Assembly: GCA_037134695.1 (NCBI GenBank)
Contig: JBAXLU010000001.1
Span: 11,551-75,550 of the forward strand
DNA length: 64,000 bases
Direction: 5' to 3'
From: Candidatus Nomurabacteria bacterium
Lineage (GTDB): Bacteria; Patescibacteriota; Minisyncoccia; Phycocordibacterales; UBA5272
Below the pieces are notes generated by a model, which worked only from the letters and a program-made list of their open reading frames with translations, had not been told where the DNA came from and did no database searches. The position numbers were made by a program, and so were the translations under genes. Shown here piece by piece: positions 19,659 through 21,752 of the stretch (positions are counted from its first letter, which is position 1; each line of letters begins with the position of its first letter).

Positions 19659-21752
19659 ATGGCCCCAAAACAAGAGAAATCTAGTGCAAAGAAATCAAGT
19701 TACGGTGCGGACCAGATTCAAGTTCTTGAAGGCCTAGAACCAGTTCGCAAGCGTCCAGGAATGTATATCGGGTCAACAGGGCCTGACGGTCTTCACCATT
19801 TGATTTGGGAAATTTTCGACAACTCACGAGATGAGGCGATGAACGGTTATGCTAATCGTGTTGAAGTTGCGTTACTACCGGACGGATATATTCGCGTAAT
19901 TGATAACGGTCGTGGTATTCCAACCGACATTCACCCAAAGACAAAAGTATCTGCACTTGAAACTATTATGTGTACACTTCACGCCGGAGGAAAATTCGGT
20001 GGTGAAGGATATAACGTATCCGGTGGTCTTCACGGTGTGGGAGCTTCTGTTGTGAATGCTCTTTCTATTCATACAAAAGTAGAAGTTCATCGCGACGGTG
20101 GACTTTTCATGCAGGAATATAAACAAGGAATAAAAAAGTCCGCTGTGAAGCAAGTTGCTAAATCAAAATTCAACGGAACAATTGTAACCTTTAAACCGGA
20201 TGCAGAAATTTTCAAAGAGGGAACAGAATTTGAAATAAGCAGAGTTATTTCTCACCTTCGTCAGCAAGCCTACTTGGTTCGCGGTCTTACTATTCATGTT
20301 ATTGATGCCCGTGAATATGCTGGTAAGGGGGATTTTTCTGGAGAAAAATATTTAACAGATCTTTCACTTGAACAACCTAGTCAAACATTTTATTTTGAAG
20401 GAGGATTAAAGTCTTTAGTAAAACATTATAATGAATTTTCAAAGCCAGTTCATAAGAATATTTTTTATGTTGATAAATCTGCAGAAAATGTTGGAGTAGA
20501 AATTGCGCTTCAATACATCGATGATTTTCCAACAAAAATTGCAGCTTATGCAAACAATATTCCTACAATAGAAGGAGGAACTCATGTTACTGGATTTAAA
20601 ACTTCTCTTACTCGTCTTATAAATGCTTATGCTCGTAAGAATGGTGTTTTAAAAGAAAAAGATGAAAACCTAACAGGAGATGATGTACTTGAAGGCTTGA
20701 CCGTTGTTATTTCTGTAAAACTTCGTGAGATTCAATTTGAAGGTCAAACAAAAGCAAAGCTTGGATCAATGGAAGCGCAATCAGCTGTCTCTACAGTATT
20801 TTCTGATGCCTTCACTCTTTTCATGGAAGAGAATCCAGATGATGCAAAAGAAATTATCAGTAAAGGATTACTTGCTCTTCGTGCTCGTAAAGCTGCAAAG
20901 GCTGCTAAGGATTCTGTTCTTAGAAAAGGAGCACTTGAAGGATTTTCACTTCCAGGAAAACTTGCCGATTGCCAAAGTAATGATCCAGCTGATTCTGAGT
21001 TATTCATAGTGGAGGGAGATTCTGCTGGTGGTACAGCAAAGATGGGGCGTGATCGTGTGACTCAAGCTATACTTCCACTTCGTGGAAAAATATTAAACGT
21101 AGAGCGTGCACGATTGGATAGAATGTTAGGAAGTGAGCAGATTAAAAATCTTGTGCTTGCTATGGGGGCAGCTATTGGAGATACATTCAATATTGAAAAG
21201 TGCCGTTACCATAAATTGATTATTGCAACAGATGCCGATGTTGACGGGGCACACATTCGTACACTTCTTCTTACATTCTTTTATCGTTATTATCGTCCAA
21301 TTATTGACGCTGGTTATGTTTATATTGCTCAACCTCCACTTTATAAGATTGCTTTTAACAAAGAGAATCATTATGCATATTCAGATGTTGAGAAGCAGGC
21401 TATTTTAAAGAAGCTTGGCTTTGATGACGCGGAAGATGCGGAACAGACGCAGAATGATGCGGAAGAAAACACAGAAAGTGATGATGGTGATACCGCTGAA
21501 GAGACTGAAGAAAAAGTTGTAAAGAAGTCCAATAAGAAACCACAGATACAGCGTTATAAAGGTCTTGGAGAAATGAACTCAGATGAACTTTGGGAAACAA
21601 CAATGGATCCAAAGACTCGTACCTTAAAAGTTGTTTCTGTTCATGAAGCAGGGGATGCTGATAGAACTTTTGAAATGCTGATGGGTTCTGAAGTTGGACC
21701 ACGTAAATCTTTTATCCAGACTTATGCTAAACAAGCAAATTTGGATATCTAA
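19659..21752 (+). CDS. gyrB: DNA gyrase subunit B (type IIA topoisomerase ATPase subunit)
   Basis: 697-aa ORF; GHKL ATPase motifs ([21 protein letters not shown]), Toprim ([10 protein letters not shown]; DADVDGAHI), [10 protein letters not shown] tail; in-frame acidic repeat insertion at 21424-21470. Confidence 0.85.

Follow-up and report, generated by a model that had tools for sequence, protein, structure and literature searches.

A repeat-derived segment in the gyrB gene

The stretch of DNA analyzed here, referred to as the window, comprises 64,000 nucleotides (nt) of Candidatus Nomurabacteria bacterium (assembly GCA_037134695.1, contig JBAXLU010000001.1, positions 11,551-75,550 of the forward strand). 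Judged by its sequence, the host is a Nomurabacteria-like member of the Patescibacteria. Within its gyrB gene, encoding the B subunit of DNA gyrase, lies a short segment that matches a dispersed repeat family of defined architecture and patchy distribution among relatives. In the canonical unit of this family, termed an arm, four CGCRGAA cores spaced at 10-11-10 nt, which make up two double units of 21 nt (seven codons) each, are followed by an A-rich tail. A first-pass annotation of the window had described the segment as an acidic in-frame insertion in the C-terminal linker of GyrB, ~85% identical at the nucleotide level to the tail of rplY. The features of the gyrB locus are listed below.

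19659-21752, + strand: gyrB coding sequence, 697 aa, the host gene of the arm; open reading frame (ORF) whose orthologs carry the domains HATPase_c, DNA_gyraseB, Toprim and DNA_gyraseB_C
21423-21512, + strand: acidic linker of GyrB, 30 residues lying between LKKLGF and a further stretch of 21 residues; similar length in 120 of the 120 closest orthologs
21426-21477, + strand: solo forward arm in gyrB, with four cores and the tail GAAAACACAGAAA; nhmmer E = 8e-8; atypical codons

The window GyrB matches solved GyrB structures at E = 1e-85. Its arm is canonical but for a 1-nt deletion in the first spacer, with two CGC and two TGC cores at 21428-34 (CGCGGAA), 21437-43 (TGCGGAA), 21448-54 (CGCAGAA) and 21458-64 (TGCGGAA), spaced at 9-11-10 nt. 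Both segments named in the first-pass annotation are real, with small corrections to their limits: the gyrB segment, 21426-21470, which is in frame with the gyrB ORF and encodes 15 residues, had been started 2 nt early, and the rplY segment, 4235-4277, had been placed 1 nt off.

The best local alignment of the two segments contains 37 identities in 43 positions (86%) and one 1-nt gap, for a score of 30, in agreement with the identity first reported. Because of this gap, gyrB and rplY read their exact common 16-mer, GGAACAGACGCAGAAT, in different frames (E-Q-T-Q-N in gyrB, G-T-D-A-E-stop in rplY), and the identity is therefore not explained by a common peptide. The codon-shuffled null that the first-pass annotation had proposed as a check was implemented as 20,000 synonymous recodings of the gyrB peptide under the window's own codon usage; the recoded sequences scored 18 on average and 28 at most, and none reached the observed score. 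In the arm, each of the three Ala residues is encoded by GCG, Thr by ACG and each of the two Gln residues by CAG, codons that outside the arms make up 8.7%, 4.8% and 29.5% of their respective families in the window, and the probability of this codon choice under window usage is ~3e-6. The combination of an exceeded recoding null and rare codons places the likeness between gyrB and rplY at the DNA level. Allowing up to three mismatches, the 16-mer occurs six times in the window against 0.28 expected, a count reached in none of 100 shuffles. The first-pass preference for a shared DNA element over convergent peptide evolution is thus borne out by the difference in frame, the recoding null, the atypical codons and the fact that a model built from unrelated metagenome loci matches both copies. 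The frame shift between the copies and the breadth of the family had been overlooked, as had, unless covered in another of its findings, a further copy in the RNase P RNA gene (rnpB).

Other copies in the window

A hidden Markov model (HMM) of the arm was built from 97 unique metagenome arms, none of them from the window, and run with nhmmer over both strands of the 64 kb. It returned exactly five strong matches, with E-values from 2e-11 to 8e-8. The window contains six arms, located in rplY, pheS, pheT and gyrB and, as an inverted pair, in rnpB; five of the six (rplY, pheS, pheT and both rnpB arms) show 10-11-10 spacing. Loci outside the window are designated by L numbers.

3611-4267, + strand: rplY, long Ctc-type form of bL25; orthologs are named 50S ribosomal protein L25 (PF01386, PF14693)
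4235-4290, + strand: forward arm at the 3' end of rplY; cores at 4237, 4247 (mutated, GGTGGAA), 4258 and 4268; HMM E = 6e-9 (4235-4280, 6.4e-9)
13101-13128, + strand: perfect 9-bp hairpin CTTCATCAG-AATGGGTA-CTGATGAAG directly upstream of the pheS arm; its left half encodes host F-I-R
13113-13175, + strand: in-frame insertion of 20-21 aa in pheS, with forward arm; cores at 13129, 13139, 13150 and 13160; tail GGAATACAA; HMM E = 3e-10
13858-13910, + strand: in-frame forward arm in pheT; cores at 13863, 13873, 13884 and 13894; tail GGAATACAA; HMM E = 2e-11
21431-21468, + strand: HMM match of the gyrB arm; E = 8e-8 (8.4e-8)
45292-45691, - strand: RNase P RNA gene, bacterial class A, with palindromic element; Rfam RF00010, full model 1-367
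45379-45509, - strand: palindromic element in rnpB (parts given below in plus-strand coordinates); HMM E = 4e-11 for the right arm

The last 10 codons of rplY and its TAA stop (4265-4267) are derived from the arm, and the segment 4235-4277 runs 10 nt past the stop, which falls in the spacer after core 3 and leaves core 4 and the A-rich tail untranslated. Orthologs at 87-94% identity end in ..KGKKEEE..PAAE and lack the element (94% in L202). Distant orthologs at 71-75% identity (L203, L204, L205) end in DAE(E/G)(G/T)GTDAE, encoded by the same DNA with the stop after core 3; beyond it, core 4 is present in L203 and L205 and decayed in L204.

The element adds a net 20 aa to PheS and ~13 aa to PheT. 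The pheS insertion is absent from L081, L001, L002 and L006 and has an orthologous copy in L207, and L189, from a different lineage, carries a palindromic copy at the same PheS position. The pheT arm is found in the window and in L081 and is absent from L001 and L002. Comparison of filled with empty pheS and pheT sites revealed no direct duplication.

The rnpB element comprises, in plus-strand order, a terminal hairpin (45379-45397), an arm (45398-45435), a loop (45436-45452), the inverted arm (45453-45490) and a second terminal hairpin (45491-45509). It forms an insertion of ~100 nt at model position 245/246, in the P16/P17 region, and the gene scores 104 bits against a gathering score of 100. 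As RNA, the inverted pair folds at -55.8 kcal/mol (z = -6.2 versus shuffles), and its right arm is 86% complementary to the pheS arm. The arm tail GGAATACAA of pheS and pheT is also the start of the rnpB hairpin loop AAAATACAAA, and hence the copies share an ordered unit of ~50 nt, which is more than a short motif. No reverse arm and no significant adjacent hairpin were detected for the gyrB and rplY copies.

Relatives have extra ORFs between pheS and pheT, one of which, in L206, belongs to the 23S_rRNA_IVP family. The PheT proteins of L206 and L207 contain an NLPC_P60 domain insertion and measure 793-798 aa, compared with 654 aa in the window. The segments concerned are L081 2779-3777, L206 2988-3344 and 3379-5760, and L207 3000-5396.

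Architecture and spread of the family

Metagenomes were scanned with a 24-nt pattern, GAACRNACGCAGAANNNYGCRGAA, that leaves cores 1 and 2 outside. At least 117 stretches, from many samples and with GC contents of 0.30-0.68, matched the pattern, for which ~15 chance matches were estimated; about a dozen high-GC matches present the pattern alone, without flanking cores, as expected of chance. The consensus of the 97 unique arms is CGCaGAA..A CGCaGAACaaA CGCAGAA.aA CGCaGAA aaaat, and cores 1 and 2, although not fixed by the pattern, are still 63-84% conserved at the expected distances. Judged by gene content and sources, the metagenome loci are apparently from Patescibacteria. A phage origin was rejected on the grounds of a single match among 2.9 million viral contigs and the lack of any match in phage genomes.

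The copies take three forms: solo arms in frame with a host gene, palindromic hairpins composed of a forward arm, a short loop and a reverse arm, and inverted arm pairs enclosing cargo. Structural-RNA hosts were sought with Rfam in 20 metagenome loci, and protein hosts were named by Pfam. Palindromic copies, some of which also lie within coding sequences, were identified in 23S rRNA (L100, L139, L116), 16S rRNA (L161, L123, L148, L132, L099), tmRNA (L157) and RNase P RNA (L085), the latter in helix P12 as opposed to P16/P17 in the window. In some 16S rRNA genes, elements are nested within one another. The 5' region of the 16S rRNA genes of L123, L130 and L190 has elements in the loops of others, with at least three arm pairs in a row.

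In-frame hosts include RecG, LeuRS, other class I aminoacyl-tRNA synthetases (Val/IleRS), TsaD, LepA, IF2, EF-G, ThrRS, DnaG and an M50 peptidase. Forward coding arms typically encode ..NAEQTQNxAE.., and among the matches listed, the solo arms that lie in ORFs of 300 aa or more run in the forward sense in 20 cases and in the reverse sense in five. The gyrB and rplY copies are solo arms, as are at least 20 other coding copies. In the DnaG primase of L153 (1531-4467), a decamer arm occurs together with a LAGLIDADG intein, giving a single essential gene two types of selfish insertion.

In the cargo form, arms ~400 nt apart enclose a complete in-frame PD-(D/E)XK domain, which matches Pfam PDDEXK_3 at E ~1e-30 to 1e-34 and the NCBIfam model TIGR04256 'GxxExxY' at E = 2e-34. 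All six cargo loci checked have the forward arm directly upstream and the reverse arm directly downstream of the domain, and their hosts are three unrelated genes: RecG, where the domain lies between helicase motifs, LepA, where it precedes DTPGH, and LeuRS. In three cargo hosts (one RecG, one LeuRS, one LepA), Pfam finds PDDEXK_3 as the only inserted domain, with no Hint or splicing domain, so that the protein presumably retains the insert. With the nuclease cargo as query, a protein search retrieved only free-standing homologues of ~125 aa at no more than 52% identity, and is uninformative on embedded forms.

Hairpins adjoining the arms

Of 96 arms, 31-35% are preceded by a perfect hairpin whose stem has at least 6-7 bp and whose end lies 1-4 nt before core 1, compared with ~1% of control positions. 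The hairpins of several coding copies combine a half that is conserved host sequence with an arm-proximal half that resembles an inverted duplicate of it; examples are the pheS hairpin of the window and, in the pheT gene of L081, GTGAT-TATC-ATCAC. In the lepA gene of L088 (CAAGTTGAGGATG-AGTG-CATCCTCAACTTG), the distal half is formed by the codons for ILNL in the motif ILNLIDTPGH. The RecG hairpin is a native codon run, QRKAL, lengthened by matching flanking codons. In RNA genes, the terminal hairpins are alike between loci (..AATGC-loop-GCATT..), their pairing being kept by compensated changes. The adjoining hairpins may represent host target sequence, a footprint or a component of the element.

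The GyrB linker among relatives

An acidic linker of about the same length is present at the same place in all 120 closest GyrB orthologs (82-97% identity). The similar length of these linkers rejects an insertion private to the window GyrB; the segment first annotated as an in-frame insertion is in frame, yet it is no net insertion, since relatives' linkers are about as long. Compared with S. aureus GyrB, the window linker is ~36 residues longer (~45 residues align against ~9). The alignment with E. coli GyrB ends at chain residue 550, the same point of the linker, where the E. coli insertion domain starts.

The arm occupies ~16 codons of the linker. In the nearest relatives without an arm, these codons are replaced by unrelated acidic sequence whose length is the same to within one codon. 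DNA identities to the window for three relatives are as follows.

L083: whole gene 86%, arm segment 82%, flanks 86-89%
L084: whole gene 92%, arm segment 62%, flanks 91%
L081: whole gene 88%, arm segment 58%, flanks 84-89%

The L083 arm has lost two cores, and L084 and L207 have a GCAGAC-type variant with 21-nt periodicity at the arm position. The ~50-nt segment thus turns over between close relatives, and the gyrB arm is a replaceable repeat-derived piece of an ancestral variable linker and not a net insertion. Among 80 gyrB-neighbourhood loci screened in species-representative genomes, a clear arm was found only in the distant relative L076, with L207 found later; arm-bearing relatives being so few, the family is patchy in the clade. 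The GyrB variant DESTDSRLGRKSD of L206 was considered as a reverse arm and rejected, as its DNA lacks the cores.

Several observations concern the surroundings of the gene. L076 (2436-2509 and 7912-7942), whose GyrB shows 66% identity, carries a related decamer array that directly follows the gyrB stop codon and an inverted pair 5 kb upstream, with GACGCGGAC/GACGCAGAC core variants that the arm HMM does not score. Past gyrB in the window, two 141-aa ORFs lie on the minus strand ~1.1 kb apart (21789-22214 and 22921-23346), within a dispersed duplicate (21780-22272 and 22912-23405) that includes terminator-like hairpins and is 86% identical over 300 nt. A relative's equivalent of the 141-aa ORF has a Hemerythrin Pfam match.

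Origin of the arms

In our view, the segment in gyrB probably represents a solo forward arm belonging to a dispersed, palindromic and selfish repeat family of apparent Patescibacteria, resembling the Rickettsia palindromic elements (RPEs). Copies of such selfish DNA would persist where they are tolerated, that is, at helix tips of structural RNAs and in surface loops, linkers and termini of housekeeping proteins. The forward arm is open in its reading frames, and the peptide that it encodes is polar and acidic. Solo arms such as those of gyrB, rplY, pheS and pheT would probably have arisen when palindromes lost the reverse arm, with selection favoring a polar peptide that does no harm, because the reverse arm would encode a peptide rich in S/A/C/R/L and because long palindromes are unstable. 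In GyrB, the arm would have replaced ~16 codons of the variable acidic linker that joins the Toprim core to the C-terminal region, where it is most likely neutral acidic filler, the linker itself being probably disordered. The nuclease-bearing copies would be the likely autonomous source of mobility, and the hairpins next to arms suggest a role for hairpin or cruciform DNA in insertion. We infer that the family is or was mobile, with an autonomous nuclease form and with hairpin DNA taking part in insertion.

A more far-reaching proposal, which we advance tentatively and would not yet bet on, is that the arrays are the ends of an undescribed class of Patescibacteria mobile elements. Its autonomous form would be a small PD-(D/E)XK (GxxExxY) nuclease translated within the host protein, inserting at hairpins or cruciforms and leaving an inverted copy of the host flank.

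Several observations weigh against the reading as selfish, mobile DNA. Mobility is read from the distribution of copies, neither transposition nor homing having been observed. Neither an adjacent hairpin nor a partner arm accompanies the gyrB copy, which leaves the protein no longer than before, and the gyrB data agree equally well with a recent insertion and with an ancient origin and later gene conversion. The rplY copies of distant lineages have in common a mutated core 2, a derived state that speaks for inheritance or recombination and against repeated insertion. No nuclease cargo was found in the window or in 1.3 Mb of relatives' gyrB-neighbourhood loci, and the element may be dead in the lineage of the window. 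Most GxxExxY homologues are free-standing proteins of ~125 aa from other phyla, and the PD-(D/E)XK GxxExxY (PDDEXK_3) family is without a demonstrated function (PMC3424549).

The main rival explanation, which we regard as unlikely, holds that the arrays are functional modules selected by the host, that is, periodic DNA or RNA binding sites for a protein, and not selfish. Highly conserved cores separated by variable spacers, at a period near one helical turn, could fit a selected binding function. The retention of the rplY copy, including its untranslated core 4, in several lineages with 71-75% protein identity is likewise compatible with host selection, as are the preservation of local terminal hairpins through compensatory changes and the retention of the rare codons GCG and ACG. 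A binding platform is harder to reconcile with the patchiness of the arms among close relatives, where orthologs at 85-97% identity have no arm or a decayed one (L083, minus two cores), and with the different sites occupied in the RNase P RNA of different organisms (P12 in L085, P16/P17 in the window), whereas nested copies and nuclease linkage are typical of mobile DNA.

Very improbable, in our assessment, is that replication slippage generated each array separately from a short GC-rich seed in acidic or low-complexity sequence, with no common descent. In favor of slippage are the internal repetition of the arm, whose period is 10-11 nt, the core-like GCC-GAA or GCA-GAA (..AAE stop) that closes the native rplY tails of relatives, and the richness of many ortholog GyrB linkers in A, D and E. 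Separate slippage would, however, have to yield the same ordered architecture (four cores, 10-11-10 spacing, C..A after core 2 and a GGAATACAAA-like tail) at unlinked loci and in more than 100 unrelated contigs; the predicted variation in copy number is missing, arms occur as inverted pairs and around conserved cargo, and the result of the family HMM contradicts separate origins. Chance or convergence between two acidic peptides with similar codons, for which it speaks that both segments encode D/A/E-rich peptide and that acidic tails and linkers are common in the genome, is ruled out for practical purposes by the different reading frames of the common 16-mer, the recoding null, the codon choice and a match that runs past the rplY stop.

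Relation to known repeats and insertions

RPEs are short palindromic repeats that fold into long stem-loops and occur in intergenic DNA and in conserved genes; according to the summary of Ogata et al. 2000 and 2002 in PMC2229807, they lie in frame in 19 protein genes and also in the tmRNA and RNase P RNA genes. The decamer family similarly occupies housekeeping genes, where it is in frame, and the genes for tmRNA, RNase P RNA and rRNA. It differs in its host phylum (Patescibacteria versus Rickettsiales), in arms of four CGCRGAA units with 21-nt periodicity, which are undescribed for RPEs, in its many solo copies, and in the subset that contains an in-frame PD-(D/E)XK domain, which is absent from the RPE account in PMC2229807. 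A relationship in sequence is not apparent, the sequences of the two being uncompared. By analogy, the decamer family would work like an RPE, and it is not filed as an RPE member.

MITEs (miniature inverted-repeat transposable elements; Correia/NEMIS, ERIC, RUP, BOX) are likewise small and non-autonomous; they have terminal inverted repeats, their transcripts form stable hairpins, and some are fused to ORFs. Inverted arms are present in the decamer family, and longer forms with the same arms carry PDDEXK_3 in six loci, none of them in the window. Unlike in MITEs, no direct target-site duplication and no TA ends were seen in the decamer family, a hairpin often adjoins the arm, and the linked protein is a small PD-(D/E)XK domain and not a known transposase.

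Tsurumaki et al. 2024 reported many short (<200 bp) rRNA insertions in the Candidate Phyla Radiation (CPR) that are not introns, have no ORF and were left uncharacterised (PMC11270868). Being hairpin-like and located at 16S and 23S helix tips, as are rRNA insertions and intervening sequences (IVS), the palindromic copies would join this uncharacterised class, for which PMC11270868 gives no decamer arrays, protein-gene copies or PD-(D/E)XK cargo. Classical IVS are hairpins in rRNA helices that RNase III cuts out, and their ORFs belong to the 23S_rRNA_IVP family, in contrast to the PDDEXK_3 cargo of the decamer family.

For RNase P RNA, Vioque reportedly found in 1997 that helix P12 of cyanobacteria contains short tandemly repeated repetitive (STRR) sequences. 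STRR sequences are tandem heptamers, whereas the decamer family forms inverted decamer arrays. In the CPR, RNase P RNA shows 'large extensions of helices' according to Lui et al. 2021 (PMC8172020), who mention neither the arrays nor their coding copies. Both types of helix extension are, like the rnpB copy, repeat-derived or unexplained, and neither report is known to tie them to an element dispersed in protein genes.

The cargo form shares with inteins and homing endonucleases an in-frame nuclease domain at conserved sites of essential genes; it differs in lacking a Hint domain in the three hosts scanned, in its PD-(D/E)XK type and in being bounded by inverted repeat arrays. At the gyrB site itself, Schoeffler and colleagues reportedly described in 2010 an insertion of ~170 aa in E. 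coli-type GyrB that forms a folded, proteobacteria-specific domain. It occupies the same permissive position, between PPLYK... and QRYKGLGEM. The two sequences are unrelated, and the window site is a short acidic linker, repeat-derived in part and probably disordered.

Other repeats in the window

The window harbors further repeats. Intergenic repeats of AAAGT-type pentamers, such as AAAGTTCATAAAGTTGAAAGTTTATAAAGT, occur in either orientation and frequently form close inverted pairs a short distance upstream of genes (5763-5834, 6227-6257, 12765-12887, 25523-25600, 57017-57147). A second dispersed repeat of ~70-100 nt (..TTTGTTGTGGAGCCTCT.TCGCTCGTCATCGTACTATTAAGTAC..) is located at 6079-6183, 36516-36545, 49037-49238 and 60426-60613; in L202, a copy of it directly follows rplY, where the window has the decamer arm. 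The hairpin TGTCATTCCCGCGAAGGCGGGAATCCAGTGT and its variants are repeated in at least five copies, in both orientations (31361-31440, 36603-36633, 62604-62634, 63023-63053). An 88-nt GC-rich repeat with 76% identity between copies (10645-10732 and 53255-53342) lies ~80-100 nt downstream of tRNA-Thr and tRNA-Phe, respectively, and had no Rfam match at the gathering threshold. Finally, a 78-nt inverted repeat (31822-31899 and 37692-37769), whose arms are 94% complementary and 5.8 kb apart, could bound a mobile or invertible segment.

Implications

No description of the decamer-array family was found in open-access papers and bioRxiv, and an RPE-like element of Patescibacteria with a candidate nuclease appears to be undescribed. 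In-frame coding palindromes, held to be peculiar to Rickettsia and a few other lineages, thus also appear in the very reduced genomes of Patescibacteria, where they affect many of the most essential genes and RNAs, and the decamer family has, unlike RPEs, a candidate mobility protein, which suggests a testable function for GxxExxY nucleases. For sequence analysis, the arms can mislead alignments, phylogenies and gene calls of markers such as gyrB, pheS and rplY, and they lower the covariance-model scores of RNA genes, as for the RNase P RNA of the window with its 104 bits against 100. The family also offers a possible explanation for short CPR rRNA insertions and for the extended helices of CPR RNase P RNA. 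Insertion at hairpins, if true, would explain why the element favors helix tips in rRNA, tmRNA and RNase P RNA as well as codon runs that are palindromic by accident, such as QRKAL in RecG. A new class of mobile elements, if the tentative proposal made above is true, would account for many of the short unexplained rRNA insertions of the CPR and for repeat-derived loops in CPR housekeeping proteins.

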